This document shows, in pieces, positions 5,165-36,158 of a DNA stretch of 64,000 nucleotides. The notes below the pieces were generated by a model. The model had not been told where the DNA came from. It did not search any database and saw only the letters and a program-made list of their open reading frames with translations. Numbering within the stretch: the stretch's first letter is position 1; each line of letters opens with the position of its first letter. The stretch covers positions 333,828-397,827 of the forward strand of contig CACNXQ010000001.1 in the NCBI GenBank assembly GCA_902624455.1, written 5' to 3'. The DNA is from an uncultured Pelagibacteraceae bacterium. Its GTDB lineage: Bacteria; Pseudomonadota; Alphaproteobacteria; Pelagibacterales; AG-422-B15. Made by a program: the position numbers and the translations under genes.

Positions 5165-5178
5165 CTATAATTTAACTT

Positions 5179-11708: not shown

Positions 11709-13400
11709 ATGCGAAATAAAACTTACCTTTCTGTTGTTGCAGTATCAAGAAATGATAATCATGGTGGCGATCCGCTTATAAGAACACAAATATTTATCAA
11801 TTGTTTAGCCGAACAATGTAAAATTTATAAAATTCAAACTGAACTTATTATTGTTGACTGGAACCCAGTTGAAAATGAGAAATTACTTAAAGATGTTTTA
11901 ATTGCACCAGAAAGCGAATACTTCGAATTAAAGTTTGTGGTTGTGCCTACTGAGCTTCACAATAAATTTAAGTATAGCGAGAGCCTTCCATTATTTCAAA
12001 TGATCGGTAAAAATGTAGGCATTAGACGAGCACAAGGCAAATTCATCTTAGCTACAAACATAGATATTATTTTTTCAAATGAACTAATGTCATTTATCGG
12101 TAAAAAAAATTTAAAGGAAAATGAAGTATATCGCTTGGACCGTTTTGACATAAGATCTGGACTAGAAGTAAATACAACTCTAAGTGAAGCCTTAACATTC
12201 GCCTGGGAAAATGTTTATTACAAAAATACTAGATTTTGTGACGATGAACTAAAGGAGGCTATTTATGGTAATTTAAAAGATAATCTGGCAAAACCAAATG
12301 TTGAATACTTAAAAAAAAGGGACTACCCAATCGTTTATGAGGACAGTGGAAACTTTGGAATTAGATCACCAAAAAAAGTAAATTATATGGAACTTCACAC
12401 AAATGCATGTGGAGATTTTACATTAATGTCAAAAAAAGGGTGGGAGGAGATTAGAGGTTACGCTGAATTCGAGGCTTACTCATTTAATATTGACAGTTGT
12501 GGTTTAATTTCAGCGCATTTTAATGGTTATAGAGAAATTTCACTTCTTCCACCCATGGTGTGTTTTCATATTGAACATTCGCTTGGCTCAGGTTGGAGTC
12601 TTGATGGCGAGACAAAACTTTTTAATCGTTTGGAAAAATCTAAAATTTTAAATCCAGAATGGCCTGTCTTAATAAATCTATTTGACGAAATACTTTCAAC
12701 TAAAGATGGAAGGCTTATATTCAATAATGAGCACTGGGGTATGTCTAAATTTGACTTAAATGACAGGAATTGCACTACCGAAAGCATGAAAACCATCAAC
12801 GTATCATCATTAATAGCTCAACTGGATCTTGATCTGCAAAGTTACTGGCTACTTAGAACGGATGAAGACCAAATGAAAAAATATCTCAATCATAAGTTTG
12901 ATCATGAAAACTTTGTTAATACATTTTATGACACATTTACAAGCAAGATTTATGTACCAGATACACTCGGTCGTTTTTCAGAAAAAAACAGTGTTACTAG
13001 AGACTCTATCTATGTAGGTGATATTTATTACAAATTAACTTTTCTTTTTAAGGGATGGAAAAATAATTATCCTGTAAGATTTGACCCATTTGATAATTTG
13101 GGTGAAGGTGAGATTACTAAAATTCTACTAATCAATAAAGATGCTAAAAAGGTTGAGATAAATTATCAAGGCGGTGACTTACATCAATTTGTACATCCAA
13201 TGAACGATATAAAGGTAGATAATACCAATCCTAAAAATTATTTTAATTTTAAGTCAACTGGTAAAGATCCATTTTTCTATATTAATATAGGGAATAATAC
13301 CAAAAAAGGGATAGAATATGAACTTCAAATCATATCATCAATTAACAACTATGAAAAAAAAGCTGTATCAACTCAGACATTAATTAAGGTTGACACTTAA
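11709..13400 (+). CDS. Hypothetical protein, probable GT-A-fold glycosyltransferase N-terminal half with unknown C-terminal domain
   Basis: LSVVAVSRNDNHGG...ELIIVDWNP and ILATNIDIIF resemble a GT-A nucleotide-binding core. ACGDFTLMSKKGWEEIRGY resembles the GT-A C-terminal region. The last roughly 200 aa are unassigned. Confidence 0.4.
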   Translation: MRNKTYLSVVAVSRNDNHGGDPLIRTQIFINCLAEQCKIYKIQTELIIVDWNPVENEKLLKDVLIAPESEYFELKFVVVPTELHNKFKYSESLPLFQMIGKNVGIRRAQGKFILATNIDIIFSNELMSFIGKKNLKENEVYRLDRFDIRSGLEVNTTLSEALTFAWENVYYKNTRFCDDELKEAIYGNLKDNLAKPNVEYLKKRDYPIVYEDSGNFGIRSPKKVNYMELHTNACGDFTLMSKKGWEEIRGYAEFEAYSFNIDSCGLISAHFNGYREISLLPPMVCFHIEHSLGSGWSLDGETKLFNRLEKSKILNPEWPVLINLFDEILSTKDGRLIFNNEHWGMSKFDLNDRNCTTESMKTINVSSLIAQLDLDLQSYWLLRTDEDQMKKYLNHKFDHENFVNTFYDTFTSKIYVPDTLGRFSEKNSVTRDSIYVGDIYYKLTFLFKGWKNNYPVRFDPFDNLGEGEITKILLINKDAKKVEINYQGGDLHQFVHPMNDIKVDNTNPKNYFNFKSTGKDPFFYINIGNNTKKGIEYELQIISSINNYEKKAVSTQTLIKVDT

Positions 13401-13423
13401 GATAAAAAAAATAAATAAGTAGT

Positions 13424-14788
13424 ATGGATTTCAAAAATGTTGCAGTTATAGGTTGTGGTAAGCTTGGCGGCACCATGGTAGGTTGTTTAGCAAGTAGAGG
13501 CTTTAATGTCACTGCTGTAGACGTATCTGAGGCTGCTGTTAATGCTCTTAATAATGGTGAAGCACCGGCACAAGAAAATGGATTAGATGAACTTATTGCA
13601 GCAAATAAAGAGAAGATAACAGCTACAATGTCTCACGAAGATGCAATCCTAAAAAGTGATATTAGTTTTGTTATAATTCCAACGCCAAGCGATAAAAGTG
13701 GTGCTTTCACAAATCAATATGCAATTCACGCATTTAAAGAAATTGGAAAAGCACTTGCAAAAAAAGACTCTTATCATACAGTTGTTTTAACAAGCACAGT
13801 AATGCCTGGCTCTACACGATCAGTATTGTTGCCGGTACTTGAGGAAAACTCGGGAAAAAAATGTGGTGAAGATTTCGGTCTTTGTTATTCACCTGAATTC
13901 ATAGCCCTTGGAACAGTCATTAGAGACTATCTTAATCCTGACTTTTATCTAGTTGGAGAGTTTGATAAACAATCTGGAGATTATCTTGAATATGTTAACA
14001 ATGCTGTAGCACTCAATCATGCACCAACTAAAAGAATGACTCTAGAAAATGCAGAACTTGCAAAGATTGCTGTTAATAGTTTTGTAACAATGAAAATAAG
14101 TTATGCCAATATGCTCGCTGATATGTGTGAAAAAATCCCAGGCGGTAATGTTGATGTTGTTTCAGATGCTCTAGGGATGGATAAAAGAATAGGCAGACAC
14201 TATCTCACCGGTGGTTTTGGATACGGAGGACCATGTTTTCCACGTGACAATGTCGCATTAGACTATGCTGGAAGAAAGCTCGGTGCTAATACTATTTTGC
14301 TGAGGACTAATGATGACTTCAATAGAAATATATCTCCAAGAATCGTAGAAAGAATAAATACCTATCTAAATGCTGACGATACCGTTTCAGTATTAGGTTT
14401 GTCTTACAAACCATTATCACATCTCATTGAAGAGTCTCCAGGTATTTATTTATGCGACTCACTTGCTAGTATGGGATATAGAGTTCTAGGATATGATCCA
14501 CTTGCAAATGAATATGCGAAACAGGCTCTAAAAAACACCCTCATCCTTGACGACTTAGAAGAATGCTTAAATCAGTCAAATGTTATTTTGGTAACCAATA
14601 ACGACGACGTGTTTACATCCTTGTCTGCCAATGATTATCTTGGGAATAAGGATAGTGTTACTATTGTTGACTTCTGGCGCTGTCTACCCGATGAAATTAA
14701 AAACGATTCAAGAATTACTTATGTTCCTCTTGGTAAATGCTTGGATGATGAAACAGCAGCTAAAAATCTTTCTTCTTTATGGAATTAG
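13424..14788 (+). CDS. Nucleotide-sugar dehydrogenase (UDP-glucose/GDP-mannose dehydrogenase family), copy 2
   Basis: VIGCGKLGGTMVGCLA, CYSPEFIALG, GGPCFPRDN, GLSYKP. Colinear with copy 1 at 1206-2558. Confidence 0.85.
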   Translation: MDFKNVAVIGCGKLGGTMVGCLASRGFNVTAVDVSEAAVNALNNGEAPAQENGLDELIAANKEKITATMSHEDAILKSDISFVIIPTPSDKSGAFTNQYAIHAFKEIGKALAKKDSYHTVVLTSTVMPGSTRSVLLPVLEENSGKKCGEDFGLCYSPEFIALGTVIRDYLNPDFYLVGEFDKQSGDYLEYVNNAVALNHAPTKRMTLENAELAKIAVNSFVTMKISYANMLADMCEKIPGGNVDVVSDALGMDKRIGRHYLTGGFGYGGPCFPRDNVALDYAGRKLGANTILLRTNDDFNRNISPRIVERINTYLNADDTVSVLGLSYKPLSHLIEESPGIYLCDSLASMGYRVLGYDPLANEYAKQALKNTLILDDLEECLNQSNVILVTNNDDVFTSLSANDYLGNKDSVTIVDFWRCLPDEIKNDSRITYVPLGKCLDDETAAKNLSSLWN

Positions 14789-14883
14789 ATTTTTAATATT
14801 TTATAAGTTTTTTTGTCTATATTGCGTCTATCTATAGTTAAAATCTTTACTTTTTGTAATTACTAATGCAATAAGTAACTAAG

Positions 14884-17800
14884 ATGAATATTCTATTTGT
14901 TTTCTACGGAGACGCGAGATCTAACTCATTTAATCCTCTGGATATTCTCATGCGATCGCTTTATGACAGGGGTCATAATATAGCCGTAGCAATGCCCAAC
15001 AATGCCAAAGCGATAAGTCCTAAATATAAATCTTTTACATTCCAAAAAATATTTAAAAATAATTTAAAAATTTTCAGAAATAATAATACAGCTGATATTT
15101 TACATGTTATCTCACCAAGGTCAGTTAATATTAATTTTTTATCCAAATATTTAAAAATAAAACCTACACCCTTTTTAGTTTTTCTTGAGGACAATGAAAC
15201 TTATATAACAAAAAACATAATAAATAAATTTGTTGGTAAAGAATACTTAATGAGTGACAATGATTATATTAATATTTTAGGTGGCCAACTTACAAAAAAA
15301 TCAGCTTATATTAGCACACTTCTTTTAGCAGATAAAATAGTAACAATTAATGAAACCATTCAAAATGATTTTCCAATCAAGCTAAATTTTGAAAACATTT
15401 TACCTGGAATTGATCTTGAATTTTTTTCAAATAAGGTAAATCCATCAGATAATTTTTTAAAAAAATATCAACTCGACTTAAAAAAAAATAAATATATTAC
15501 ATTTCCAGGAGGAATTAATTATTTTACTCTTAAACCGGCAATAGAATTGATAAAAGGAGTAAATCTTTACAACAGAAAAAATAATCAAAATATTCAATTG
15601 ATTTTTTCTGGTCCGGATGGTCCAGAAAGAGAAAAAATAAATGATTTTGTTAAAAAAAATAATATTCAAAACTTTAGATACATTGGTTTTATAGATAGAA
15701 AAAATATGCCGAATTTTCTATCAATTTCTGAAATATTGATACAACCAGGTAAGCAAAATGATTTTGAAGAGCTTAGATTTCCAGGAAAGATAGCTGAATA
15801 TTTGGCCATGGGCAAACCTGTCATATTGCCAAACACTAGCATCGCTAGAAAAATTAACTTAAAAGTCAAATCTGAAATTTTGCTTAATGGAAACTCTACT
15901 GAAATTGCAGAAAAACTAAGATTATTACTTAGCGACAATCATCGGTTAAAGCAAATTTCTATGTCGAGTCGAAAATATGCAGAATTGAATTTTGATATTA
16001 GATCCACAGTAAAGAAGTATGAGTTAATTTATTTCAAAATAAGAAAAAACACTAAAAAATTCAATATATTAAGAGATATTTCGTTTAATAATATTGAGGT
16101 AAGTGCAATAAAAATTCTTTTAGAAAACTATAAAAACAAAAATAAAGAACTATTGTTAAATTTAATTAGTAAAATAAATAAAGATAGAACAGAGAAGGAT
16201 ATAAATTATTTTTTAGTCAGAAACAAAAATGAAAAACTTATTCATCTCGAAGAGTCTTTTGATAGGCTCGCAATAAAATATAACAAGCAAGTTGAAAATA
16301 GTAGAAATGAGATTGAAAAACTTCAAAAAGAGATACAAGTTAGAGATAATCAAATACATGGCTTGCTTACTTCGAAAAGTTGGAAAATTACAAAACCAAT
16401 TCGGATTATATATCAACTTCTAAAACTGATAAGAAGCTGTTTTGTACTTATCAAGTTCTTGAATACTAGAAATATAAAAAAAATAATACAATATTTACCA
16501 CGTGATAAAAAACTGAGTAATACCATAAAAACTATTAATCACTACGCAGAGCAGTTAAACAATAAAAAAATATTTGTTAATCGATATAATGAGTGGATTC
16601 AAAGAGAAGAGGATTTTAATTTAAACGATGTTAAAGTAATAAGAAATAAATTACAGAGCATTAAATTAAAGACAAAGTTTTCAATTTGTATGCCTGTATT
16701 TAATCCTAATCCGATTTATTTAAAAGAAGCAATAGACTCAGTAATAAATCAAATTTATCAAAACTGGGAATTATGTATTGCTGATGATGCGTCAACTAAT
16801 CCTGAGATAAGAAAGATTTTAAAATACTATGAATCACAGTACAGAAATATAAAAGTTATTTATCGTAAAGAAAATGGCCATATTTCAAAAGCATCAAATT
16901 CTGCTATAAGAGTTTGTACTGGAGACTATATAGGTTTTTTAGATCATGACGATAAATTATCACCTCATGCACTTCTATGGGTCGCTGCAGAAACAAAAAA
17001 TAATCCAAGAGCTCAAATAATATATTCAGATGAAGATAAAATAAATGAAGCTGGAAATCATGATGGACCATATTTTAAGCCCAATTTTAGTCCTGAACTA
17101 TTCTATTCGCATAATCTTATAACTCATTTTGCAATTTATAAAAAAAATATCATTAAAAAAATAAAAGGTTTTAGAAGTAAGTTTGATGGAGCACAAGACT
17201 ATGATCTTGCCCTTAGGGCTCTTTCGGAATGTGGTGAAAAAAATATTTCTCACATTCCAAAGATACTATATCACTGGAGACAGCATTCGGATAGTACTGC
17301 GTTAGACAGTAACGCTAAGCCATATGCAATGTTAGCTGGTGAAAAAGCACTAAACGAGTATTTTAATTCAAACAAAATTCCATATAAAGTAAAATATATT
17401 GGCAGTGCTTATAAACTTCTTGGAAAACTTCCTAAATCAAATCCTAAAATTAGTATAATTATACCATCAAATAATCTTGATAATTTAAAAATTTGTATAA
17501 ATAGTATTATTAAAAAATCTACTTACAAAAACTACGAAATTGTTGTGATTGCAAATAACAAGTTAAATGTAAAAGATGTAATTAATATTTTTCCAAATTT
17601 AATTAATTTAAAAGTTCTGAATTACAAAGGTGAATTTAACTACTCAAAGTTAAATAATTTTGGCGCAAAGAAATCTAAAGGTAAATATTTGTTGTTTTTA
17701 AATGATGATACTGAAGTAATTAGCTCAGACTGGCTGGAAGTCTTACTTGGGTTTGCTTCTATTAGAGAAGTTGGAGCTGTGGGATTAAAACTTATATATA

Positions 17801-18297
17801 AAAACAATACTGTGCAACATGGAGGTATTGTACTAGGTATCAATAATTGGGCTGGGCATGCTTTTAGAGGATTCCCAAAAGACTCTCCTGGATCTAATCA
17901 TCGACTGTCACTTGTATCAAATTTTTCAGCTGTTACTGCGGCTTGTTTAATGATCTCAAAAGTTAAATTTGATTTAGTAAGAGGTTTTAATGAAAAAGAA
18001 TTAAAAGTTGCATGCAATGATGTAGATTTTTGTTTAAGTTTAATGAATAAAGGCTACAGAAATGTATATTGTGGACATACTTCAATTTACCACTATGAGT
18101 CAATTTCAAGAGGTTATGAAGATACTCAAGAAAAGAAAAAACGTTTTGATCATGAATCTAGTTATGTAATTAACAAATGGAGAGATTTATTTAAAAATGA
18201 TCCTCACTATAATCCTAATTTAACTGATAAAACTGAAAATTTTGATTTAGCAGACAAACCTAGAATAGAAAAAATTCCTCAAATCATATATCAATAA
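14884..18297 (+). CDS. Three-domain glycosyltransferase: N-terminal GT4 (GT-B), coiled coil, then two tandem GT2 domains
   Basis: GT4: RFPGKIAEYLAMGKPVILPN. Coiled coil around aa 450-495, followed by SKSWKITKPIR (nt 16372-16404). GT2-1 from nt 16678: FSICMPVFNPNPIYLKEAIDSVINQIYQNWELCIADDAS. GT2-2 from nt 17449: ISIIIPSNNLDNLKICINSIIKKSTYKNYEIVVIANN. Confidence 0.8.
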   Translation: MNILFVFYGDARSNSFNPLDILMRSLYDRGHNIAVAMPNNAKAISPKYKSFTFQKIFKNNLKIFRNNNTADILHVISPRSVNINFLSKYLKIKPTPFLVFLEDNETYITKNIINKFVGKEYLMSDNDYINILGGQLTKKSAYISTLLLADKIVTINETIQNDFPIKLNFENILPGIDLEFFSNKVNPSDNFLKKYQLDLKKNKYITFPGGINYFTLKPAIELIKGVNLYNRKNNQNIQLIFSGPDGPEREKINDFVKKNNIQNFRYIGFIDRKNMPNFLSISEILIQPGKQNDFEELRFPGKIAEYLAMGKPVILPNTSIARKINLKVKSEILLNGNSTEIAEKLRLLLSDNHRLKQISMSSRKYAELNFDIRSTVKKYELIYFKIRKNTKKFNILRDISFNNIEVSAIKILLENYKNKNKELLLNLISKINKDRTEKDINYFLVRNKNEKLIHLEESFDRLAIKYNKQVENSRNEIEKLQKEIQVRDNQIHGLLTSKSWKITKPIRIIYQLLKLIRSCFVLIKFLNTRNIKKIIQYLPRDKKLSNTIKTINHYAEQLNNKKIFVNRYNEWIQREEDFNLNDVKVIRNKLQSIKLKTKFSICMPVFNPNPIYLKEAIDSVINQIYQNWELCIADDASTNPEIRKILKYYESQYRNIKVIYRKENGHISKASNSAIRVCTGDYIGFLDHDDKLSPHALLWVAAETKNNPRAQIIYSDEDKINEAGNHDGPYFKPNFSPELFYSHNLITHFAIYKKNIIKKIKGFRSKFDGAQDYDLALRALSECGEKNISHIPKILYHWRQHSDSTALDSNAKPYAMLAGEKALNEYFNSNKIPYKVKYIGSAYKLLGKLPKSNPKISIIIPSNNLDNLKICINSIIKKSTYKNYEIVVIANNKLNVKDVINIFPNLINLKVLNYKGEFNYSKLNNFGAKKSKGKYLLFLNDDTEVISSDWLEVLLGFASIREVGAVGLKLIYKNNTVQHGGIVLGINNWAGHAFRGFPKDSPGSNHRLSLVSNFSAVTAACLMISKVKFDLVRGFNEKELKVACNDVDFCLSLMNKGYRNVYCGHTSIYHYESISRGYEDTQEKKKRFDHESSYVINKWRDLFKNDPHYNPNLTDKTENFDLADKPRIEKIPQIIYQ

Positions 18298-18336
18298 AGG
18301 ACGTAAAATGCTTATGGTAAGATTTTAAATATCAAT

Positions 18337-19758
18337 ATGATTAATAATAAAAATTTAGCAGTTGATTTGGATGGAACTTTAATCAAGACTGATATACTCT
18401 TTGAAAGTATCTTAATTTTCATAAAAAAAAATCCTCTGAATATATTTAAATTATTTAGCTGGCTTTTAAATGGACGACTATTTTTAAAAAAAAAACTTTC
18501 TGAAATTGTTTGTCCTTCAGTTGAAAATTTGCCCTACAATAAGGATGTAATTAATTTTATTCACAAAAAAAAACAAGAAGGATTTAAAATAATACTTGCT
18601 ACTGCCACTATTAATACAATTGCAAACAAGATCTCAAATTATTTAAATATTTTTGACGACGTAGTTGCTTCATCTAATGAGAATCTGTCTGGAAAGTATA
18701 AAGAAGCAGCTCTAGTAAGCATGTTTGGTAAAAATAACTTTGAATATATTGGAAACTCAACAAAAGATGTGAATGTTTGGGAGTCATCCTCAAAATGTCA
18801 TTTGGTTAAACCAACAAAAAAAATATTAAATAAAATAAAAAGTAGAAAATTAGGTGAGATATTTGTAAATAACCTGTCTTTCCTTAAAATTTTTTTCTCA
18901 GCAATAAGAATTCATCAGTGGGTAAAGAACATTTTATTATTTATACCTCTAGCTGCTGCACATTTACTTTTTGAGATCGATCTATTAATTAATGGGCTAA
19001 TTGCATTCTTATGCTTCGGACTGTGTGCATCTTCAATTTATCTATTTAATGATTTGATTGATATTGAAGACGATAGAAATCATGAAGATAAAAGAAATAG
19101 ACAGCTGGCTGCTGGGAATTTAACTATAATGGGTGCACTCTTTTTGATTGCAGTGTTACTGACTATATCATTTACTTTCTCATATATCCTATTACCTATA
19201 AACTTCTTATTAATTATTCTATTGTATATTTTCATAAATATTTTTTATTCAATTTATTTAAAAAATATTATTTTACTTGATTTGTTTTTACTTGCTTTTT
19301 TGTATACATTGAGACTGATTGCAGGAGCAGAGGCGATGTATTTAGAAACTACTTTTTGGATTATAACTTTTTCAATGTTTATTTTTTTTAGTTTAGCTGT
19401 TGTCAAACGATATACAGAGTTTGTGAGGAAAGGAAATAATAATGAAGGTGCAATAAAGGTTCGAAGTTACACTGATCGTGATAAATTATTTTTATTTATT
19501 CTTGGTATAACTACTGGACTAATTTCTGTTTTAGTTCTTGCACTCTATATTAATGAAGTAAGTAGAATTGATATTTATCCTCAAAAAGAATTACTTTGGT
19601 TTTCTTGTCCTTTACTCTTTTATTGGATGACAAGAGTGTGGCTGTTGGCTAGTAGAGGTGAAATGAATTATGATCCAGTAATATTTGCAATAAAGGATAA
19701 TCAAAGTAGATTTATTGGAATTTTATTTTTATCTGTATTCTTAATGTCTGCAATATGA
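18337..19758 (+). CDS. HAD-phosphatase / UbiA-family polyprenyl-phosphate phosphoribosyltransferase fusion (Rv3806c-like)
   Basis: HAD motif I LAVDLDGTLIKTD and motif IV IGNSTKDVNVW in aa 1-170. The C-terminal polytopic domain carries the UbiA Asp-rich motif NDLIDIEDDRNHEDKRNRQLAAG. 4-nt overlap with the DprE1-like gene. Confidence 0.75.
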   Translation: MINNKNLAVDLDGTLIKTDILFESILIFIKKNPLNIFKLFSWLLNGRLFLKKKLSEIVCPSVENLPYNKDVINFIHKKKQEGFKIILATATINTIANKISNYLNIFDDVVASSNENLSGKYKEAALVSMFGKNNFEYIGNSTKDVNVWESSSKCHLVKPTKKILNKIKSRKLGEIFVNNLSFLKIFFSAIRIHQWVKNILLFIPLAAAHLLFEIDLLINGLIAFLCFGLCASSIYLFNDLIDIEDDRNHEDKRNRQLAAGNLTIMGALFLIAVLLTISFTFSYILLPINFLLIILLYIFINIFYSIYLKNIILLDLFLLAFLYTLRLIAGAEAMYLETTFWIITFSMFIFFSLAVVKRYTEFVRKGNNNEGAIKVRSYTDRDKLFLFILGITTGLISVLVLALYINEVSRIDIYPQKELLWFSCPLLFYWMTRVWLLASRGEMNYDPVIFAIKDNQSRFIGILFLSVFLMSAI

Positions 19759-21068
19759 AAAACAGTTATCTGTCATGGGGAAGGTATCCCAATATTCCGC
19801 AAAAAGCGGAGATTATTTATTGGCCTAACAATGTAATTTCAAAAATCAATGCTGTCATTGAGAATAATGATACCACTTTAGCTTATGGCTTAGGTCGAAG
19901 TTATGGAGATTCATGTTTAGCAAACAGCAACAATATTTTAAATATGCAAAATATGGACAGAATTATTTCATTTGACAAACAAAGTGGAATAATTGTCGCT
20001 CAATCTGGAATTTCAATTGAACAAATCTCTAAAATATCCATACCTAATGGATGGTTTGTACCTGTGAGCCCAGGTACAAAGTATGTGACTTTAGGAGGAG
20101 CCGTTGCTAATGATGTACATGGCAAAAATCATCATAATGCAGGTACATTTGGCTGCCACGTCAATAGTTTTAAAATTTACAGATCTAAAGAGGGCATTCT
20201 CGAATGTTCAGAGAACTTACACCCAGAACTCTTTAAAGCAACGATTGGTGGTTTGGGCTTAACAGGTATCATTCTGCAAGTTGAATTTAGGCTAAAGAAA
20301 ATAAACTCATCAAGAATTCAGGTTAATAATATTAAATTTAATAATATAGATGAATTTTTTGAATTAAGTAACTTGCACGATAATAATCACGAATATACAG
20401 TTTCATGGATTGATTGTTTATCTCAGGGAAAAAATCTTGGAAGAGGAATTTATTCGTATGCTGATCACCTCGATGATAATTTTTTAGAATTTAGTAACTC
20501 AAAAAAGATAAATTTCCCATTTGAAATTCCATTTTCACTTGTTAACTCTTTTACATTAAAATCATTTAATTCATTCTATTACAATAGCCAGTTTAAAAGC
20601 AAAAATTCAAAAATTACTGACTATGAAAGTTTTTTATATCCATTAGATAAAATTTTAAATTGGAATCGAATGTACGGAAAAAAAGGATTTGAACAATTCC
20701 AATGCGTGATACCAAAAACTAACGGAAAACAAGTATTAAAAGATATATTAAAAACGATAACAAAATGTAACAACGGTTCATTTTTATCGGTATTAAAACA
20801 AACTGGAGATATAGTTTCTCCAGGAATTTTATCATTCCCTATCCCGGGATATTCGCTTGCTTTGGATTTTCCTCAAAAAAGTAATAGTAATGATGTTTTA
20901 TTTAGGAAACTTGATCAAATTGTCCATGAAGCTGGAGGCAGGCTTTACCCCGCTAAAGATGCACATGTAAGTAAATTGAATTTTCAGTCATCTTACCCTA
21001 ATTGGCATAAAGTAGAAAATATGCGTGATAAAACTTTAATGTCAAAATTTTGGGAGAGAGTTGCATGA
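19755..21068 (+). CDS. DprE1-like FAD-dependent polyprenyl-phospho-ribose 2'-oxidase
   Basis: Blocks shared with M. tuberculosis DprE1 as recalled: GLGRSYGD, VPVSPGTKYVTLGGAVANDVHGKNHHNAGTFG, LGLTGII, WNRMYGKKGFEQFQCVIP, SFLSVLK, LSFPIPGYSLALDFP, GGRLYPAKD. Confidence 0.85.
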   Translation: MKNSYLSWGRYPNIPQKAEIIYWPNNVISKINAVIENNDTTLAYGLGRSYGDSCLANSNNILNMQNMDRIISFDKQSGIIVAQSGISIEQISKISIPNGWFVPVSPGTKYVTLGGAVANDVHGKNHHNAGTFGCHVNSFKIYRSKEGILECSENLHPELFKATIGGLGLTGIILQVEFRLKKINSSRIQVNNIKFNNIDEFFELSNLHDNNHEYTVSWIDCLSQGKNLGRGIYSYADHLDDNFLEFSNSKKINFPFEIPFSLVNSFTLKSFNSFYYNSQFKSKNSKITDYESFLYPLDKILNWNRMYGKKGFEQFQCVIPKTNGKQVLKDILKTITKCNNGSFLSVLKQTGDIVSPGILSFPIPGYSLALDFPQKSNSNDVLFRKLDQIVHEAGGRLYPAKDAHVSKLNFQSSYPNWHKVENMRDKTLMSKFWERVA

Positions 21069-21817
21069 AAAAATCAAAAACTGTTGCTATTTTTGGTGCC
21101 ACTTCAAACATAGCTGAAGCAGTTGCAAGAATTTATTCAAAAGAAGGTGCAAGCCTTGTTTTAGTTGGAAGAGATATGGAAAAATTAGAAATTATAATGA
21201 GTGACCTCCTAATCAGAGGAGCAAAAGAAGTTAAATTAATAATTAATGATCTTTCAATTGAAAGTCAATCAGAGAAACTTGTTGATGATGTTTGGAATCT
21301 ATTTGAAAGTATTGATATTGCTTTAATTGCACCCGGTACATTACCAACACAGAATGTAGCAAACAAAGATATTGCTTACGCACGGAAACATTTTAGATTT
21401 AATTCTGAGACAATTATAATTTTATTATCACTGATAGCAAAAAAATTTATAACTCAAAAATTTGGAAATATTTCAGTAATAAGTTCTGTTGCAGGGGACC
21501 GGGGTAGAAAAGATAATTTTTTATATGGCGCTGCAAAATCCGCTGTCTCAGTTTTTACAAGTGGTTTAAGAGGTATGATGCAAGAGCATGGTGTGTCCGT
21601 AATGACTATCAAGCCGGGATTTGTAAAAACATCAATGACTAGAGATGTCCAATTTCCATCCTTATTATCAGCTACTGCTGATAGAGTTGCTAACGATATT
21701 GTTAAATCAATAAATAATGGTCGTGATGTAGTTTACACACCGTCGTTCTGGAAAATAATAATGATCGTAATAAAAATAATTCCGGAGAGTATATTTAAAA
21801 AAATTAACTTTCGGTAG
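21065..21817 (+). CDS. DprE2-like short-chain dehydrogenase/reductase
   Basis: AIFGATSNIAEAVA, SSVAGDRGRKDNFLYGAAKSAV, IKPGFVKT, and the DprE2-type C-terminus PSFWKIIMIVIKIIPESIFKKI. Start set at ATG 21065 (ATGA overlap) rather than the ORF-track 21050. Confidence 0.8.
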   Translation: MKKSKTVAIFGATSNIAEAVARIYSKEGASLVLVGRDMEKLEIIMSDLLIRGAKEVKLIINDLSIESQSEKLVDDVWNLFESIDIALIAPGTLPTQNVANKDIAYARKHFRFNSETIIILLSLIAKKFITQKFGNISVISSVAGDRGRKDNFLYGAAKSAVSVFTSGLRGMMQEHGVSVMTIKPGFVKTSMTRDVQFPSLLSATADRVANDIVKSINNGRDVVYTPSFWKIIMIVIKIIPESIFKKINFR

Positions 21818-21828
21818 CTACATTTGGA

Positions 21829-23991
21829 GTGATAAAATTAGTAATGGTAGCCATTAATTCATTCAAAAATACAATTTCTTTAATTACTATTTTTTCAGTA
21901 CTTATTACAATTTTTGGAGTTTTCTCAAATTTTAGTAGTATTCCTTACTGGGATATGTGGGATGGGTATCTCAATTTCTATCTTAAGATTCAAAATGGAC
22001 AATATTATGAGTGGTTTGCACTACATAATGAACATAGGATATTTTTATCAAGAATACTGTTCTTTATAGATATAAAGATTTTTAATAATCAGAGTTATTT
22101 TTTAGTATTATGTAATCTATTATTTTTATCTTTTGCAGTATTAATATTTATTACTTTTCTCAGAAATAATTTTTCATTTAAAGATTATAGTACGGTATAT
22201 CTTGTTATTGTTTGTCTTTTATTTTCTTGGATACAGGAAAACAACTTAATCATTGGTTTTCAAACAGCATTTGTATTAGCTCAACTAATTCCATTAGTCG
22301 CATTTTATTATTTTTTTAAGTCAATTAATCATCTCGACCAAAGAACAAACTTTTTTATAATTTCAATTTTTTTTGGTTTCTTATCTAGTTATACACTTAT
22401 TTCTGGTATTTTTGTTTTACCAATTCTTACTTTTTATTGCTTTATTGTTGGTTTTAAAAAAGAGTACTTAATTTCTCTAATTATAGTTACAGCTATTTCA
22501 CTAATTTTGTATTTCTTTTCTTATCAATCTGTAGAACATCATGGGTCCATTCAAGATGCAATATTGCATAATCCTTTGGATTTTATAAATTATGTATTTT
22601 TATATTTTGGTGGCCCTTTTTATTATTTTTTTGGAAAAGGTGAAACAGGGATGAATTTAGCATGGATTGCTGGATTTATTTTTATCTTTCTTTCGCTATA
22701 TTATTTTTTTTATTATTTAAAAAAACAATCATTTATAAATTATTATGGATGGTTATATTGTTTTATCTTATATGTAGGATTGACAGCTGCAGCGACAGCA
22801 GGAGGAAGGCTTATTTTTGGTGCTAGCCAGGCATTGTCTAGCCGATATATGACTCCTGTAATTTTTTCTTGGGTGTGCCTAATAATAATAACAGTTTATT
22901 ATTTATATAAAGAAAATAATATAAATGAGAAGTACAAGAAATTCCTTCAAATATTTTTTTCAATATTTCTATATTTATTAGTCATAGTTATTGTTTTTTT
23001 TCAGTTGCGAGTATTTTCATATGATAATGATATTAATTTTGAAAAAAATATTGCTGCACTAAGTATTAAAATGGACGTAAAAGACATAGCTCAAATTCAA
23101 AGTGTTTACCCAAATTTTGATATGCCATTAAATGTAAAAAATAAAATGAATGATATTGGAAAAGATATTTTTAACTTTGATCCTTTCAAGGATATTTCAT
23201 TCGATAGTAAATATCACAGACAAAAAAACTTTAATAAAAAATTTTCAAACAAGTGCATTGGTGAAATCGATAATATTTCATTTGCAGGTGACAATTTAAT
23301 GAAGATTTCGGGTTGGATTTATAGTCCAGATGAAAAAGCTATCTCAAAAAAATTATACGTTCTTAATTCAGATAATAAATTAATTGGTTTTATCCTTACC
23401 GGAAAAAAAATGTCTCTAATAAAAGAGATGTACGGAAAAAATGCTTTAAACTCAGGATTTAAGGGATACATATTAAATAAAAACGATACAATTAACAGTT
23501 CCAAAATAAAATTCGTAAGCTATGAACAAGATTGTGAACTCTCTATTGACAATGGTTTAGATAATATTCCAATGTTTAGGATTAAAGAATTTGAGGACGT
23601 GGATGAAAACAGTATCGTTAGACCTGAGGCTATATTAAGTACTGAATGGTTAGGGCAAGATTATTACAGTGTTTGGTCTGGTACTGCTACTCTACCGTTA
23701 AAGTACAATATATATGGTTCATTCAGTGTGTCAGACGCTGAGTCAGGATCAATTACATTAAGACTGAATAAGGGGCAGGGCTTTTTCTTTAGATCTGAAC
23801 CAAATTCTAAAATTCAATACATGCAAATTAATGGTGGCGAGAAATTTTTTATTCCAAGAGATATTCCTCCAGCCTCAGAGTGGTTATTTCTGGAATTTAA
23901 CAACCCATCACTACCAGATACTTTTAATGTTGAAATTACTGACGAAGGTGCTGGATGGGGAGAGTGGTCTGCAGTAGGATTGATAAGATAA
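21829..23991 (+). CDS. Polytopic membrane protein with about 290-aa C-terminal soluble domain; candidate GT-C-type (arabinosyl)transferase
   Basis: About 11-13 hydrophobic helices across aa 1-400. The first loop carries acidic/aromatic YWDMWDGY...HNEHRIF. The C-terminal 430-720 is hydrophilic. It lies immediately downstream of the DPA-type genes. No family motif recognised with certainty. Confidence 0.4.
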   Translation: MIKLVMVAINSFKNTISLITIFSVLITIFGVFSNFSSIPYWDMWDGYLNFYLKIQNGQYYEWFALHNEHRIFLSRILFFIDIKIFNNQSYFLVLCNLLFLSFAVLIFITFLRNNFSFKDYSTVYLVIVCLLFSWIQENNLIIGFQTAFVLAQLIPLVAFYYFFKSINHLDQRTNFFIISIFFGFLSSYTLISGIFVLPILTFYCFIVGFKKEYLISLIIVTAISLILYFFSYQSVEHHGSIQDAILHNPLDFINYVFLYFGGPFYYFFGKGETGMNLAWIAGFIFIFLSLYYFFYYLKKQSFINYYGWLYCFILYVGLTAAATAGGRLIFGASQALSSRYMTPVIFSWVCLIIITVYYLYKENNINEKYKKFLQIFFSIFLYLLVIVIVFFQLRVFSYDNDINFEKNIAALSIKMDVKDIAQIQSVYPNFDMPLNVKNKMNDIGKDIFNFDPFKDISFDSKYHRQKNFNKKFSNKCIGEIDNISFAGDNLMKISGWIYSPDEKAISKKLYVLNSDNKLIGFILTGKKMSLIKEMYGKNALNSGFKGYILNKNDTINSSKIKFVSYEQDCELSIDNGLDNIPMFRIKEFEDVDENSIVRPEAILSTEWLGQDYYSVWSGTATLPLKYNIYGSFSVSDAESGSITLRLNKGQGFFFRSEPNSKIQYMQINGGEKFFIPRDIPPASEWLFLEFNNPSLPDTFNVEITDEGAGWGEWSAVGLIR

Positions 23992-24930
23992 ATGAATGAT
24001 AAAAGAATAATTTTAACTGGCGGTGCTGGCTTAGTAGGTCTCAATTTAATACCAAGATTATTGAAAAAAGGCTATAGAAACATACTAGTTTTAGATAAAC
24101 ACAAGGATAATATTTTAATCGCGAGAAAGCTCTTTCCAGATATTGAAATCGAAGAAGCTGACATTTCCGAAAGAGGCAATTGGACTAAATATCTTGAAGC
24201 TGGGTCTGTTATTATTATGTTGCAAGCTCAAATAGGTGGAAATAAATTTATTGATTTTGAGAAAAATAACGTAACTTCTACGCACAACATAATTGAAGAG
24301 ATTAAACATAAAACAAATATTCGCCTTATTCATGTTAGCTCATCAGTCGTAGAGTCGATAGCTGATGACTACTATACAAACTCAAAAAAAACCCAAGAAA
24401 AATTGGTTATAGATAGCGGTCTTAAATGTGTTATTTTGAGGCCAACTCTTATGTTTGGATGGTTTGACCGTAAACACCTTGGTTGGTTATCAAGATTTAT
24501 GCAAAAGATACCAGTATTCCCTATTCCAGGAAATGGAAAATTTATAAGACAGCCATTATATGCTGGAGATTTTTGTAATGTAATAATAAGCTGTATCTCT
24601 AATCAAGAAATAAATGGTATTTTTAATATTTCGGGGTATGAAAAAATTTTTTATATTGATTTAATAAAAAAGATAAAACAAATTATCTCGGCAAATACTT
24701 ATATCGTTAAGATACCATTTTTAGTTTTTTATTTTCTTATCTGGTTATGGAGTTTATTCGATAAAAATCCACCTTTCACAACTCAACAATTAGTCGCACT
24801 TAGTAATGATGAGGAATTTGAAATTATTGATTGGGCAAAAATTTTTTCGATCTCTTGTTATACACTTGATGAAGCTCTTAACGAAACTTTTAATGATAAA
24901 ACATTCAGTAAAATAAAAATGAAATTTTAG
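23992..24930 (+). CDS. NAD-dependent epimerase/dehydratase-family protein with C-terminal hydrophobic segment
   Basis: ILTGGAGLVGLNL Rossmann motif and YxxxK (YTNSK). Hydrophobic IPFLVFYFLIWLWSLF near the C-terminus. Abuts the upstream stop (TAAATG). Confidence 0.7.
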   Translation: MNDKRIILTGGAGLVGLNLIPRLLKKGYRNILVLDKHKDNILIARKLFPDIEIEEADISERGNWTKYLEAGSVIIMLQAQIGGNKFIDFEKNNVTSTHNIIEEIKHKTNIRLIHVSSSVVESIADDYYTNSKKTQEKLVIDSGLKCVILRPTLMFGWFDRKHLGWLSRFMQKIPVFPIPGNGKFIRQPLYAGDFCNVIISCISNQEINGIFNISGYEKIFYIDLIKKIKQIISANTYIVKIPFLVFYFLIWLWSLFDKNPPFTTQQLVALSNDEEFEIIDWAKIFSISCYTLDEALNETFNDKTFSKIKMKF

Positions 24931-24935
24931 CAACA

Positions 24936-26231
24936 ATGAGTGATAAAGGGAAAATTGCTGTACTAGGAGCCGGACCAATGGGACTTGCAGTGGCCTACCA
25001 GCTAATTTTAGATGGCTACAAACCTATTGTATTTGAAGCAGATGATAGAGTAGGCGGAATGACTGCAAGTTTTGATTTTAATGGTTTAAATATTGAAAGA
25101 TACTACCACTTTCATTGTACATCAGACAAAGCATTCTTACAGATATTGACCGATTTAAATATAAAACATTTATTTCATTGGAAAGAAACAAAAATGGGGT
25201 ACTGGTACTTAAATAGACTACAAGAATGGGGAAATCCTCTGGCACTTTTAAAATTTAAAGGGTTAAGTTTTCTGTCAAAAATTCGATACGGCATTCATGC
25301 TTTCACATCAACAAAAAGGTCAAATTGGATAAAATTAGATAAGTTAAGTGCAAAAGAATGGATTATTAAATGGGTAGGAGCAGAAGCATTTGATATATTA
25401 TGGCGAAAACTATTCGAGTATAAATTTTATCATTTTAGTGATTCAATTTCTGCAGCTTGGATATGGAGCAGAATAAGACGATTAGGTAATTCAAGGTATA
25501 ATATATTTAGAGAAAAGCTTGGATATTTAGAGGGTGGATCTGAAACTCTTCTTTTCGCTCTTAAGAGAAACATACTTTCAAACGGAGGTGAAATACACTT
25601 ATCAACATCTATAAAAGAGGTTCAATTAGAAAATAATAAAGTTTCTGGATTACGAACAGAAAAAAATTTTTATGAATTTGAGAATGTGATTAGTACAATT
25701 CCTTTACCATACATACCGAAAATAATACCAAAGTTACCAAAAAAAATACTTGAAAAGTATTCCAACATCAAAAATATTGCCGTTGTTTGTGTGATTGCGA
25801 AGCTATCAGAGAAAGTTTCTGATAATTTTTGGGTAAATGTTAATGATCCAGAAATGGATATTCCTGGATTTGTAGAATACTCAAATCTTAGACCTCTTCA
25901 AAATAGTATTGTATATGTCCCTTTTTACATGCCAGGTGAACATTCTTACTATAATGAACCTGACAAATTTTTTATAGAAAAAGTAAAATTATATTTAAAA
26001 AAAATCAATTCTCGTATTGATGAAAAAAAATTCATAGATATTAAAGCTAGTAGATATAGATTTGCACAACCAATATGTGAAACAAATTTTTTAGATCAAT
26101 TACCACCTATCAATTTGCCTATTAAAGGGTTATATGTTGCAGATACATCTTATTACTACCCAGAGGATAGGGGAATTTCTGAAAGTGTTGAGTTGGGTAT
26201 AAAAATAGCTAAAAGTATCAAAGTTGATTAA
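24936..26231 (+). CDS. FAD/NAD(P)-binding oxidoreductase (amine-oxidase / phytoene-desaturase / UGM-like superfamily)
   Basis: Dinucleotide motif IAVLGAGPMGLAVA...FEADDRVGGM. 431 aa. Substrate unknown. Confidence 0.65.
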   Translation: MSDKGKIAVLGAGPMGLAVAYQLILDGYKPIVFEADDRVGGMTASFDFNGLNIERYYHFHCTSDKAFLQILTDLNIKHLFHWKETKMGYWYLNRLQEWGNPLALLKFKGLSFLSKIRYGIHAFTSTKRSNWIKLDKLSAKEWIIKWVGAEAFDILWRKLFEYKFYHFSDSISAAWIWSRIRRLGNSRYNIFREKLGYLEGGSETLLFALKRNILSNGGEIHLSTSIKEVQLENNKVSGLRTEKNFYEFENVISTIPLPYIPKIIPKLPKKILEKYSNIKNIAVVCVIAKLSEKVSDNFWVNVNDPEMDIPGFVEYSNLRPLQNSIVYVPFYMPGEHSYYNEPDKFFIEKVKLYLKKINSRIDEKKFIDIKASRYRFAQPICETNFLDQLPPINLPIKGLYVADTSYYYPEDRGISESVELGIKIAKSIKVD

Positions 26232-26631
26232 ATTTTTTTTTACAAAACAATTTTTAAAATTTTTTGCAGTTGGATTAAGCGCAGCTTTTATACATTGGTT
26301 ATCTCGAGTATTATTAAATTTCTATTTTTCATTTTATTGGTCCGTATTTATTGCTTATTTTTTTGGAATTTTAAGTGCGTATATCTTAAATCGTATTTAC
26401 GTGTTTCCAAATTCAAATAAAAGCATGTATGAACAAATATATAAATTCTTTATTATCAATTTATCTTTCTTGCCAATCGTATGGTTTTGTTCAATATTTA
26501 TTTATTCCTTATTAATAAAATTTGGTATAGACTTTTACCCAGAGGCAATCGCACATGGAATGGCAGTGTCGTTGCCAATGCTTATAACTTTTATTCTTTA
26601 TAAATTTTTAGCTTTTGCAGATTATAAATAG
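26224..26631 (+). CDS. GtrA-family small membrane protein
   Basis: 135 aa with 4 predicted helices. FLKFFAVGLSAAFIHW resembles the GtrA N-terminal motif. TTG start overlaps the upstream stop by 8 nt. Confidence 0.65.
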   Translation: MIKFFFTKQFLKFFAVGLSAAFIHWLSRVLLNFYFSFYWSVFIAYFFGILSAYILNRIYVFPNSNKSMYEQIYKFFIINLSFLPIVWFCSIFIYSLLIKFGIDFYPEAIAHGMAVSLPMLITFILYKFLAFADYK

Positions 26632-27290
26632 TGGAACAAGAAAAACTATCAGAATTATATAAAATAAGGTTTCAAGAAGAAATTTTAAGTAGAAAGAATG
26701 ATATTTGGAAAGTTCTATGCTCTGATTTTTTCCAAAAATTTATTCCAGAAAATTCAACAGTAGTTGACTTAGCATGCGGATATGGCGAGTTTATTAATAA
26801 TGTGGAAGCTTCAAATAAAATAGCATTTGACCTTAATGAAGAAAGCAAAAACTTTCTTAATAATGATGTTAAGTTTCATGAAAAATCTGTCATGGAACTC
26901 AATAAGCTTTATAATGAAGAAATTGACGTTATATTTACATCCAACTTTCTTGAGCATTTAGAAAATAAGAAAGCATTAGAGCAATTATTAGCAGAAATAT
27001 ATAGAACACTAAAAATTGGAGGTAAATATATAATTTTAGGTCCAAACCTCAGATATTTAAACGGTTCATATTGGGATTTTTATGATCATCACCTCGGATT
27101 AACTCATATTTCTCTTCAAGAAGCACTTAGATTAAATGGTTTTAAGATTGATCTTTGCTATGCCAAATTTTTACCATTTACTATGCAGGGATCACTTCCA
27201 ACACACCCACTCTTAGTTAAGATTTATTTAAATGTAAAATTTGCTTGGAAATTATTGGGCAAGCAATTTTTTATAGTTGCTAGCAAATAG
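26631..27290 (+). CDS. Class I SAM-dependent methyltransferase
   Basis: VVDLACGYGEF (motif I), DVIFTSNFLEHL, LKIGGKYII. GTG start overlaps the GtrA stop by 1 nt. Confidence 0.7.
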   Translation: MEQEKLSELYKIRFQEEILSRKNDIWKVLCSDFFQKFIPENSTVVDLACGYGEFINNVEASNKIAFDLNEESKNFLNNDVKFHEKSVMELNKLYNEEIDVIFTSNFLEHLENKKALEQLLAEIYRTLKIGGKYIILGPNLRYLNGSYWDFYDHHLGLTHISLQEALRLNGFKIDLCYAKFLPFTMQGSLPTHPLLVKIYLNVKFAWKLLGKQFFIVASK

Positions 27291-27300
27291 TATTTATTTT

Positions 27301-28353
27301 TTATGGTGACAGCTTCTTTTCTATATGAAGTAGAAATAAATAAATAAATAATTGAGCAAACGAAATTATAAAAAATGTATTTAAGTATCCGATTACATCA
27401 CCATAATAATATATTAATACAGAAATAAACGAAAGATATAGAAGGATTAGTATTGATGTTAAAGAATTTGGATTTATGATTAAAAATCTATTTAAAAATT
27501 TATTTTCATTAATGTTATATTTTAGCAGCCGAAAAAGTACCGAATGTAAATGTTTGTCATCTGGCTTTAGTGGATTTTTTTTGTTAATCAAGAGTCGTCT
27601 CCAAAAAGATATAAATAGATCATTTACAGGATAACTAATCAAACAAGCTATTAATGTAGCGTAAATTAATTCGTTATTAGCAATATATATACTTAATGAG
27701 CCAATCAAAAATCCTAAAAAATATGCTCCACAATCACCTGACAAGATCTTTCCTGTAGTAATATTGACTAAAAATAATACAAATATACTTAAAAATAAAA
27801 TTTCTATTAAGTATAATATTTCAGAATTTGTATTTTCTGCATAAATATAAAAATTTATAAGAATTATAATTGTTACGCCACTCATAAGTCCATTGTTTCC
27901 ATCAATAAAATTGAAACCATTAATACAAAACAAAAGACCAATTATTGTAAATATATAGGGTATAATTTGGTATGAATTGAATATAGTATTTAGGACATTG
28001 TGATCTAAATTATCTAATACAAAATTATTTCTAAATAAAAAAATTAAAATAATTAGTGTCATAAGAATAAATCTTATTTTACCACTGAATTTTTCATTTA
28101 AATCAGCAATAAATCCAATCATCATAAATAATAGGCTAAAAATTATAATTTCAAATATTAATGGATCGCTTACAAAAAATACGGTCGTATAAAATGAAAG
28201 CATTGAGGCGCCTCCTATTTTTATTACAGTTCTATTATGTATTTTCCTTATATTTTCTGACGGCTCATCCAAAAATAATTTTGTCTTATGACTAAGAGAA
28301 AAAATAATTAAAAGAATAAGTATTGAAATAAATAATGTTATTATAATATGCAT
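27301..28353 (-). CDS. WecA/WbpL/MraY-family polyprenyl-phosphate hexosamine-1-phosphate transferase (initiating GT)
   Basis: Polytopic, 350 aa. LFLDEPSENIRKIHNRTVIKIGG and NGFNFIDGNNGLMSG match GT4 (MraY-like) family motifs. Confidence 0.8.
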   Translation of the reverse strand: MHIIITLFISILILLIIFSLSHKTKLFLDEPSENIRKIHNRTVIKIGGASMLSFYTTVFFVSDPLIFEIIIFSLLFMMIGFIADLNEKFSGKIRFILMTLIILIFLFRNNFVLDNLDHNVLNTIFNSYQIIPYIFTIIGLLFCINGFNFIDGNNGLMSGVTIIILINFYIYAENTNSEILYLIEILFLSIFVLFLVNITTGKILSGDCGAYFLGFLIGSLSIYIANNELIYATLIACLISYPVNDLFISFWRRLLINKKNPLKPDDKHLHSVLFRLLKYNINENKFLNRFLIINPNSLTSILILLYLSFISVLIYYYGDVIGYLNTFFIISFAQLFIYLFLLHIEKKLSP

Positions 28354-28370
28354 ATATTAACTTTCATGTA

Positions 28371-36083: not shown

Positions 36084-36158
36084 GGGCACGTAGCTCAGTG
36101 GTAGAGCATCACGTTGACATCGTGGGGGTTGTTGGTTCGATCCCAACCGTGCCCACCA
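36084..36158 (+). tRNA. tRNA-Val (anticodon GAC), CCA encoded
   Basis: Hand-folded cloverleaf: acceptor GGGCACG/CGTGCCC, D-arm GCTC/GAGC, anticodon stem TCACG/CGTGG with loop TTGACAT, T-arm GTTGG-TTCGATC-CCAAC, discriminator A plus CCA. Confidence 0.9.

Follow-up and report, generated by a model that had tools for sequence, protein, structure and literature searches.

Lipid-linked pentofuranose donors have been described in several bacterial glycosylation systems, and genes resembling those that make them are present at positions 18337-27290 of the 64,000-nucleotide stretch of DNA analysed here (the window), which comes from an uncultured Pelagibacteraceae bacterium (contig CACNXQ010000001.1). 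In three-component extracytoplasmic pentofuranosylation, described as widespread, the components are encoded by ORF15-ORF14-ORF12 of Citrobacter youngae O1/O2 (Kelly et al., PNAS 2024, PMC11127046). The biochemistry of C. youngae ORF15, a HAD (PRP)-UbiA (PPPRS) fusion, has been demonstrated: the UbiA domain makes polyprenyl-phosphate-ribose-5-phosphate, after which the PRP domain removes the 5-phosphate (PMC11127046). Homologues of DprE1 and DprE2 are reported to accompany glycans containing arabinofuranose (Araf; PMC11127046). In Pseudomonas aeruginosa, DprE1, which is 33% identical to Mycobacterium tuberculosis (Mtb) DprE1, and DprE2 are both required for glycosylation of pilin with D-Araf (bioRxiv 10.1101/2020.04.19.049825), and in the alphaproteobacterium Azorhizobium caulinodans homologues of mycobacterial D-arabinose precursor enzymes, encoded by noeCHOP, are used for D-arabinosylation of Nod factor (PMC2443382).

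The module in the window begins with genes for a HAD-UbiA fusion protein, a DprE1-like flavoenzyme and a DprE2-like short-chain dehydrogenase/reductase (SDR), and continues with genes for a large membrane protein (here TM720), a second SDR, an FAD oxidoreductase, a GtrA-family protein and a methyltransferase. We favour, with some confidence but by no means as settled, the view that it is the DprE1/DprE2, i.e. arabinofuranose, version of three-component extracytoplasmic pentofuranosylation, adding a pentofuranose to a surface glycan.

The three core proteins

Three consecutive, overlapping genes on the + strand at 18337-21817 had been singled out, in an earlier note made from the sequence alone, as matching the core enzymes of the mycobacterial decaprenyl-phospho-arabinose (DPA) route. 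The open reading frames are as it described, and the motifs that it quoted (NDLIDIEDDRNH, GLGRSYGD, GGAVANDVHGKNHHNAGTFG, GFEQFQCVIP, LSFPIPG, GGRLYPAKD and IPESIFKKI) are all found in the translations. The closest homologues of the three products in the PDB are, as the note proposed, Rv3806c, DprE1 and DprE2, with E values of 4.8e-24, 2.9e-69 and 1.7e-27, respectively; NCBIfam likewise ranks the DPPRS, DprE1 and DprE2 families first among its functionally named models. The three genes are joined by stop/start overlaps, ATGA in each case, at 19755-19758 and at 21065-21068, and are thus predicted to be translationally coupled.

The first protein (18337-19758, + strand, 473 aa) is predicted to comprise a PRP-like HAD phosphatase domain (aa ~4-180) fused to a UbiA-family polyprenyl-phosphate 5-phosphoribosyltransferase domain (aa ~185-473). 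Its only PDB matches are two entries for Rv3806c, the better being 8j8j, and the NDxxDxxxD motif of UbiA proteins is present as NDLIDIEDD. The NCBIfam model PRK08238 spans the protein over its full length (residues 4-472, 538 bits, cutoff 351). The N-terminal domain scores only weakly against the Pfam HAD model (20.3 bits, where the cutoff is 27); the DxDxT motif is present as DLDGT (residues 10-14). By analogy, the HAD domain may supply the dephosphorylation step that is carried out by Rv3807c in mycobacteria. In Polynucleobacter sp. (GCA_018881505.1, 17999-19299) the UbiA gene (294 aa) is without the HAD domain and has a DUF212/PAP2-like gene after it, in what looks like a swap of phosphatase type inside the same pathway; this arrangement fits a dephosphorylating role for the HAD domain.

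The second protein (19755-21068, + strand, 437 aa), a putative FAD-dependent polyprenyl-phospho-ribose 2'-oxidase, aligns over residues 6-417 with the DprE1 structure 4aut, is ~33-35% identical to Mycobacterium smegmatis DprE1 and has a vanillyl-alcohol-oxidase-type FAD_binding_4 domain (PF01565, 60.7 bits, cutoff 26.4). The equivalents of Mtb Lys418, His132, Lys134, Tyr60 and Gln334/336, which we take to be catalytic or substrate-site residues of DprE1, are kept in the window protein and in 83/83 homologues from related loci. By contrast, Cys387, the covalent target of benzothiazinones in DprE1, is dispensable for catalysis; its equivalent is alanine in the window protein (residue 369, in SLALDFP) and in 80 of the 83 non-actinobacterial homologues, so these enzymes are predicted to be insensitive to covalent benzothiazinone-type inhibitors. 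In the Prokaryotic Genome Annotation Pipeline (PGAP) such homologues are labelled just 'FAD-binding oxidoreductase'.

The third protein (21050-21817, + strand, 255 aa as called), a putative 2-keto reductase, has as its best PDB match the DprE2 chain of a DprE1-DprE2 complex (21gq_C, residues 9-252), with the next match at 6.6e-17. The alignment runs end to end and includes the C-terminal tail (IPESIFKKI compared with IPRSIFRKL), and the SDR motif YxxxK is present as YGAAK. Translation probably begins at ATG 21065, giving 250 aa, because the ATGA overlap lies there and the same start is used in a 71%-identical relative (locus L081).

Two other identities, raised in the earlier note as outcomes that would tell against its assignment, were looked for and rejected on the basis of score gaps. 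The family next to DprE1 in PDB matches to the flavoenzyme, the galactonolactone (sugar-lactone) dehydrogenases, scores 7.7e-07 as against 2.9e-69, and quinone, heme and other prenyltransferase models reach at most 34 bits with the UbiA protein, as against 136 bits for the DPPRS models.

The wider module and its predicted product

In species-representative genomes, at least 591 genomic stretches contain relatives of the DprE1-like gene, and the synteny counts given here refer to the best 80 of these loci. The best 80 relatives are 43-53% identical to the window protein and come from Variovorax, Paraburkholderia, Pseudomonas, a Chlorobiaceae metagenome-assembled genome, Acidobacteriota, Chloroflexota, Nitrospirales and others; no Pelagibacterales label occurs among them. 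Relatives also occur on 65 plasmids, mostly of Rhizobium but including those of marine Rhodobacterales (Ruegeria, Salipiger). The pathway is thus not, as had been supposed in the earlier note, known only sporadically in Proteobacteria: it is the experiments alone that are sporadic, and the general type of system was described in 2024 (PMC11127046).

The HAD-UbiA/DprE1/DprE2 order is kept in 70 of the 80 loci. The gene for DprE2 is followed by the SDR-FAD pair in about 26 of them, with a GtrA gene, always after the FAD gene, in 19; the pair stands beside DprE1/DprE2 genes in loci L001, L003, L016, L080, L082, L083, L086 and L087, and SDR orthologues beside DprE2 are 52-59% identical. Members of the TM720 family, detected with a hidden Markov model, are present in 12 of the 80 loci, i.e. 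in 12/26 with the SDR and in 0/54 without it (hypergeometric p ~ 1e-7). Independently chosen TM720 homologues, from Polynucleobacter and Hyphomonas atlantica, are encoded directly upstream of SDR-FAD-GtrA and adjoin UbiA-DprE1-DprE2; the H. atlantica locus also adjoins a Wzm/Wzt ABC exporter. The genes in the window thus amount to a recurrent cassette of seven to eight genes, more than a trio, and the earlier description of the trio as a complete pathway was right as to three core enzymes and missed both the HAD domain and the downstream genes. On a Burkholderia stagnalis megaplasmid (NZ_CP156687.1, 1139-4307; locus L082) the same eight-gene module lies beside isonitrile-synthase-family and GT1-like genes, which hints at a link, in that host, to a glycosylated natural product rather than to lipopolysaccharide (LPS).

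The gene for TM720 (21829-23991, + strand; 715-720 aa, annotated start ATG 21844) encodes a multi-pass membrane protein with no Pfam match; sequence and profile searches of the PDB returned nothing, and no solved GT-C enzyme was matched. It belongs to a family of 'hypothetical proteins' of ~560-730 aa (248 matches). Among 45 homologues the motif WDMWDGY, just after transmembrane helix 1 (TM1), is held in common, its aspartate (D37) being kept in at least 90%, and both HNEHR and the R334-Y335 pair are invariant. The AlphaFold2 model, which is confident (pLDDT 87.4, pTM 0.82), shows ~11-13 transmembrane helices together with a beta-rich domain at the C terminus. When the model was compared with the PDB using Foldseek, the sole credible membrane-protein matches were GT-C enzymes, i.e. 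ArnT (probability 0.97), Pmt1/2 (0.92), EmbB (0.90) and AftA (0.84), and also DPY19, while the tail matched carbohydrate-binding modules (CBMs) of families CBM4, CBM29 and CBM32. On the strength of the model, TM720 is a probable GT-C-type pentofuranosyltransferase with a CBM-like domain. Its architecture matches, in a comparison by description only, that reported for ORF12/GT136 of C. youngae, in which 11 transmembrane helices are combined with a small periplasmic domain that follows TM1, a catalytic aspartate close to TM1, the pair R349/Y350 and a CBM at the C terminus (PMC11127046).

The next four genes are less readily placed. The extended SDR (23992-24930, + strand; labelled 'NAD-dependent epimerase/dehydratase', Pfam Epimerase 1.1e-17), a candidate second epimerase, has intact TGxxGxxG (TGGAGLVG) and YxxxK (YTNSK) motifs and a hydrophobic C-terminal stretch; its PDB matches are WbmF-like proteins and NDUFA9. 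The FAD oxidoreductase (24936-26231, + strand) belongs to the phytoene-desaturase/protoporphyrinogen-oxidase/amine-oxidase superfamily; it passes the NCBIfam model PRK07233, named 'hypothetical protein' (525 bits, cutoff 252), and its profile matches in the PDB are at the superfamily level only (phytoene desaturase, PDS, 9.4e-15; protoporphyrinogen oxidase, PPOX, 5.2e-14). Its identification as a UDP-galactopyranose mutase was considered and rejected, since its match to that enzyme (5e-07) is weaker than those to PDS and PPOX and it lacks a GLF domain. The GtrA-family small membrane protein (26224-26631, + strand, 135 aa; Pfam GtrA_DPMS_TM, PF04138, 46.1 bits, cutoff 26.1) may, as a counterpart of Rv3789/PsPA7_6247, serve the lipid-linked sugar as flippase or hub. 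The class I S-adenosylmethionine-dependent methyltransferase (26631-27290, + strand; Pfam Methyltransf_11, 1.7e-10) has homologues in 5-6 related loci and in B. stagnalis, and is an occasional member of the module.

In the pathway that we favour, the UbiA domain would transfer ribose-5-phosphate from phosphoribosyl pyrophosphate to a polyprenyl phosphate, expected in a Gram-negative organism to be undecaprenyl phosphate and not decaprenyl phosphate, giving a lipid-phosphate-ribofuranose-5-phosphate from which the fused HAD domain would strip the 5-phosphate. The DprE1-like flavoenzyme would then oxidise C2' of the lipid-phosphate-ribofuranose, and the DprE2-like SDR would reduce the resulting 2'-keto intermediate to polyprenyl-phosphate-D-arabinofuranose. 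The GtrA-family protein may aid movement of this donor to the membrane's periplasmic side, where TM720, with its GT-C-like fold and carbohydrate-binding-like tail, would transfer the sugar to a glycan; the acceptor would be assembled by the WecA-like, GT2/GT4 and O-antigen-ligase-family enzymes encoded alongside, and may be the O-chain of LPS or lipooligosaccharide, a capsule or a glycoprotein.

Several points weigh against this proposal. Every catalytic step is one that we infer from homology, residue conservation and gene linkage. All three core proteins score below the NCBIfam equivalog cutoffs, the HAD-UbiA protein reaching 136 bits where the DPPRS models require 207-474, the DprE1-like protein 354.6 bits where NF053785 requires 500, and the DprE2-like protein 164.2 bits where NF053786 requires 250. 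For TM720 there is no sequence match, its Foldseek E values are all above 1e-3 (0.012-0.38 for GT-C enzymes) and the TM-scores are 0.2-0.3. The flippase activity of GtrA proteins is unproven even in model systems (PMC11127046). Further, a different product could result from the action of the conserved SDR/FAD pair and of the methyltransferase.

The last of these points underlies the alternative that survives best, to which we give perhaps a quarter of the weight, namely that the donor pathway is the same and that the residue transferred is not plain D-Araf. In this view the SDR and FAD proteins, alone or together with the methyltransferase, would modify the lipid-linked pentofuranose, either as a second oxidase/reductase or by a GalE-like epimerisation (at C3, giving lyxo- or xylofuranose), or by other oxidation or methylation, and TM720 would be specific for the modified donor. 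It is consistent with this possibility that the SDR and FAD proteins are better conserved (54-63% identity) than is DprE1 (50-53%), that their genes so often come directly after that for DprE2, that 7/7 plasmid-borne orthologues of the FAD gene lie ~3 kb from a DprE1-like gene, and that TM720-family genes are confined to loci with the pair. The intact SDR motifs resemble those of the xylofuranose epimerase ORF13, the pairing of an FAD enzyme with an SDR mirrors the logic of DprE1/DprE2, and systems with multiple epimerases of unknown significance have been noted (Kelly et al., PMC11127046). The strict linkage with DprE1/DprE2 and with the TM720 family suggests that the pair acts on the same lipid-linked sugar, the product possibly being a further-modified pentofuranose. 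Against this, the superfamily matches of the FAD protein include no specific functional relative, and the lipid carrier or the acceptor could just as well be the substrate of the pair.

A more specific version of this idea, which we regard as speculative, is that TM720, the SDR, the FAD protein and GtrA form an uncharacterised lipid-linked pentofuranose branch, in which the SDR and FAD proteins would serve as a second oxidase/reductase for polyprenyl-phosphate-Araf to give an undocumented sugar, e.g. D-lyxofuranose, that is installed by a GT-C family without a Pfam entry. In the loci examined (from Burkholderiales, Hyphomonas, Polynucleobacter and the SAR11-like genome), this set of genes is found only alongside HAD-UbiA/DprE1/DprE2; D-lyxofuranose is noted never to have been found (Kelly et al., PMC11127046).

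It is improbable that the trio are only distant kin of the DPA enzymes with another role, e.g. on a different prenyl-linked or a soluble substrate, such that the prediction of arabinofuranose is wrong. The shortfall of all three proteins against the equivalog cutoffs is in keeping with such a role, as is the generic naming of the models that they do pass, PRK08238 and, for the DprE2-like protein, PRK07102 (279.5 bits, cutoff 267). However, the three proteins align over their full length with the solved mycobacterial enzymes and keep their catalytic residues, equally divergent orthologues in P. aeruginosa are experimentally tied to D-Araf, and the glycan island in which the module lies has GtrA, WecA-like and ligase-family genes. 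As judged from sequence, the three are clear homologues that the curated NCBIfam thresholds would leave unnamed. The prediction of a D-Araf-containing glycan, made in the earlier note, thus keeps the backing of closest homology to the DPA enzymes and is weakened by the sub-threshold scores and by the SDR/FAD pair, given which the sugar need not be plain D-Araf.

Host, rarity and surrounding island

The window has a GC content of 31%, and its first ~31 kb form a surface-glycan island, the last gene of which ends at 31112. Beyond the island lie genes of core metabolism, i.e. pntAB and those for transketolase, glyceraldehyde-3-phosphate dehydrogenase and phosphoglycerate kinase, together with Tol-Pal genes. 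For the transketolase, a 99%-identical relative lies on a Tara Oceans scaffold whose genes are in the same order, and the three organism-named matches among the top 120 for this protein are all 'Pelagibacteraceae bacterium' (59-69% identity). On this evidence, and in keeping with the SAR11-like assignment made earlier, the host genome is by sequence Pelagibacterales-like and marine.

The module itself looks like a rare flexible-genome trait in this lineage. Among 5.8 billion proteins, the DprE1-like protein has one identical entry, which is from the source contig, and one 71% relative (L081, on a 2.8-kb contig with a GC content of 29.8%), the rest being at most 57% identical; by comparison the 90% cluster of the lineage transketolase has 106 members, a gap that may be inflated by poor assembly of variable islands. 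The trait cannot therefore be ascribed to an abundant marine oligotroph, as the earlier note had done. A metagenome scan for the island in relatives, anchored on TrhO, yielded no more than 4 loci, all weak (36-51% identity), and a phage search with the HAD-UbiA protein gave one partial match and no pelagiphage link.

The GC content of the module (29.1%) matches that of its host, while homologous loci elsewhere are at 39-66%, which argues that the cassette has long been resident in low-GC lineages and is fully ameliorated, and argues against an assembly chimera. That the module is foreign to the organism, by chimeric assembly or a binning error, or is a decaying and functionless recent import, is very hard to credit: its singleton distribution and the taxonomy of its closest relatives among the best 80 loci (Burkholderiales, Pseudomonas and Chlorobiaceae, at ~53% identity) are outweighed by this GC match, by the existence of a second low-GC relative in L081, by nine intact, tightly packed ORFs with overlapping stops and starts, and by contiguity with Pelagibacterales-like core genes on one contig of 410 kb.

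The module genes at 21829-27290 are on the same strand as the trio, with minimal spacing. Upstream, on the same strand and separated from the HAD-UbiA gene by 39 nt, is a gene (14884-18297, + strand) for a fused glycosyltransferase of 1137 aa with one GT4 and two GT2 domains (Pfam Glycos_transf_1, 4.2e-15; Glycos_transf_2, 1.4e-40, two stretches), which probably builds the backbone of the acceptor glycan. The genes at 18337-27290 and that for the fused glycosyltransferase probably form one operon; its boundaries rest on spacing only, because a scan of 13300-28500 gave promoter and terminator counts (99 vs 97.2 and 5 vs 4.7, respectively) equal to the shuffled expectation. The fused glycosyltransferase has a long lysine/asparagine-rich linker (aa ~390-590), and relatives covering 50-58% of it adjoin the module in two other loci (L002 and L066).

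Downstream of the module are genes for a WecA-like polyprenyl-phosphate sugar-1-phosphate transferase (27301-28353, - strand; NCBIfam ECA_wecA, 3.5e-18, below cutoff), which would initiate a lipid-linked glycan, and for a Wzy_C/O-antigen-ligase-family membrane protein (28371-29627, + strand; Pfam Wzy_C, 54.5 bits, cutoff 31.7), a candidate ligase or O-oligosaccharyltransferase. The island also encodes nucleotide-sugar dehydrogenases, aminotransferases, a formyltransferase, GT2/GT4 glycosyltransferases and GalE-like epimerases. Genes for a GT2 enzyme, a formyltransferase (Fmt/ArnA-like) and a DegT-type aminotransferase are grouped at 3117-6252 (- strand), which points to an N-formylated amino sugar within this island. 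A SET-domain protein of 177 aa (PF00856, 92.6 bits; 29575-30108), unusual for a streamlined bacterium, is encoded inside the island and overlaps the end of the O-antigen-ligase-family gene. In the core stretch, a DUF1329 protein (330.9 bits; 34762-36039) is encoded just before the single tRNA gene (36084-36155). Since this tRNA is all that Rfam identifies in the window, with no rRNA, the island is not to be equated with the classical, rRNA-flanked hypervariable region 2 (HVR2) of SAR11.

The surface glycans encoded by SAR11 variable islands are thought to shape interactions with phages and grazers, and their chemistry is essentially unknown. The locus gives a testable prediction for one rare lineage, i.e. 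addition in the periplasm of a pentofuranose, most likely D-Araf, to an O-antigen-like glycan. In the literature that could be searched, no paper was found to connect SAR11 or Pelagibacter to DprE1 or to the biosynthesis of arabinofuranose, and neither name appears in the supplement of Kelly et al. (PMC11127046). The claim that such a locus had not been described thus holds to the extent that we found no report from SAR11; it does not hold for the type of system, which is known and widespread (PMC11127046). On the reading favoured here, the three-component paradigm of 2024 would extend to streamlined marine oligotrophs. A widespread seven-gene version of the system is also exposed, with culturable carriers such as Paraburkholderia caffeinilytica, Hyphomonas atlantica and Polynucleobacter sp. 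UK-Mo-2m-Kol15; it includes a transferase family that is unclassified and a pair of redox enzymes still to be explained. The locus leaves the view of the pathway itself unchanged, and the rarity of the module means that it is of no consequence for SAR11 populations as a whole.

Comparison with described systems

The mycobacterial DPA pathway (Rv3806c, Rv3807c, DprE1 Rv3790, DprE2 Rv3791, the GtrA protein Rv3789 and AftA Rv3792) uses the same three core families as the window module and likewise has a GtrA gene in the cluster. We take the Mtb gene order to be Rv3790-Rv3791-aftA, which would be paralleled by the DprE1-DprE2-GT-C-like order in the window. By contrast with mycobacteria, the phosphatase in the window is a fused HAD domain rather than the PAP2-type Rv3807c, the carrier is presumably undecaprenyl phosphate, the equivalent of Cys387 is alanine, and no Emb or Aft homologues are found by sequence; the product is proposed to decorate a Gram-negative surface glycan rather than to build an arabinan.

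Among Gram-negative systems, P. aeruginosa Pa5196/PA7 (PsPA7_6245-6249 and TfpW) is similar in that a DPPRS, GtrA-like, DprE1 and DprE2 set feeds a GT-C enzyme. The P. aeruginosa DprE1, which is cytoplasmic, is as far from Mtb DprE1 as the window protein is from that of M. smegmatis. There the phosphatase is separate (6245), the SDR/FAD pair is lacking and pilin is the target of the transferase, TfpW, which contains TPR repeats; in the window no pilin gene adjoins the module. The noeCHOP genes of A. caulinodans, likened here by description only, differ in that they belong to a nod operon and serve to decorate a lipochitooligosaccharide (PMC2443382).

The C. youngae system differs from that of the window in its transporter, which is MATE-like rather than of the GtrA family; the window further has the extra conserved SDR and FAD pair and a methyltransferase, and its host is a streamlined marine Pelagibacterales-like organism. 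Nevertheless, there are resemblances, all within an O-antigen-type cluster: a fusion that in the window is predicted to be of the HAD (PRP)-PPPRS type, a lipid-linked pentofuranose as the predicted donor, auxiliary epimerases, a small-transporter gene and a large 'hypothetical' protein that crosses the membrane many times and ends in a beta-rich, CBM-like domain.

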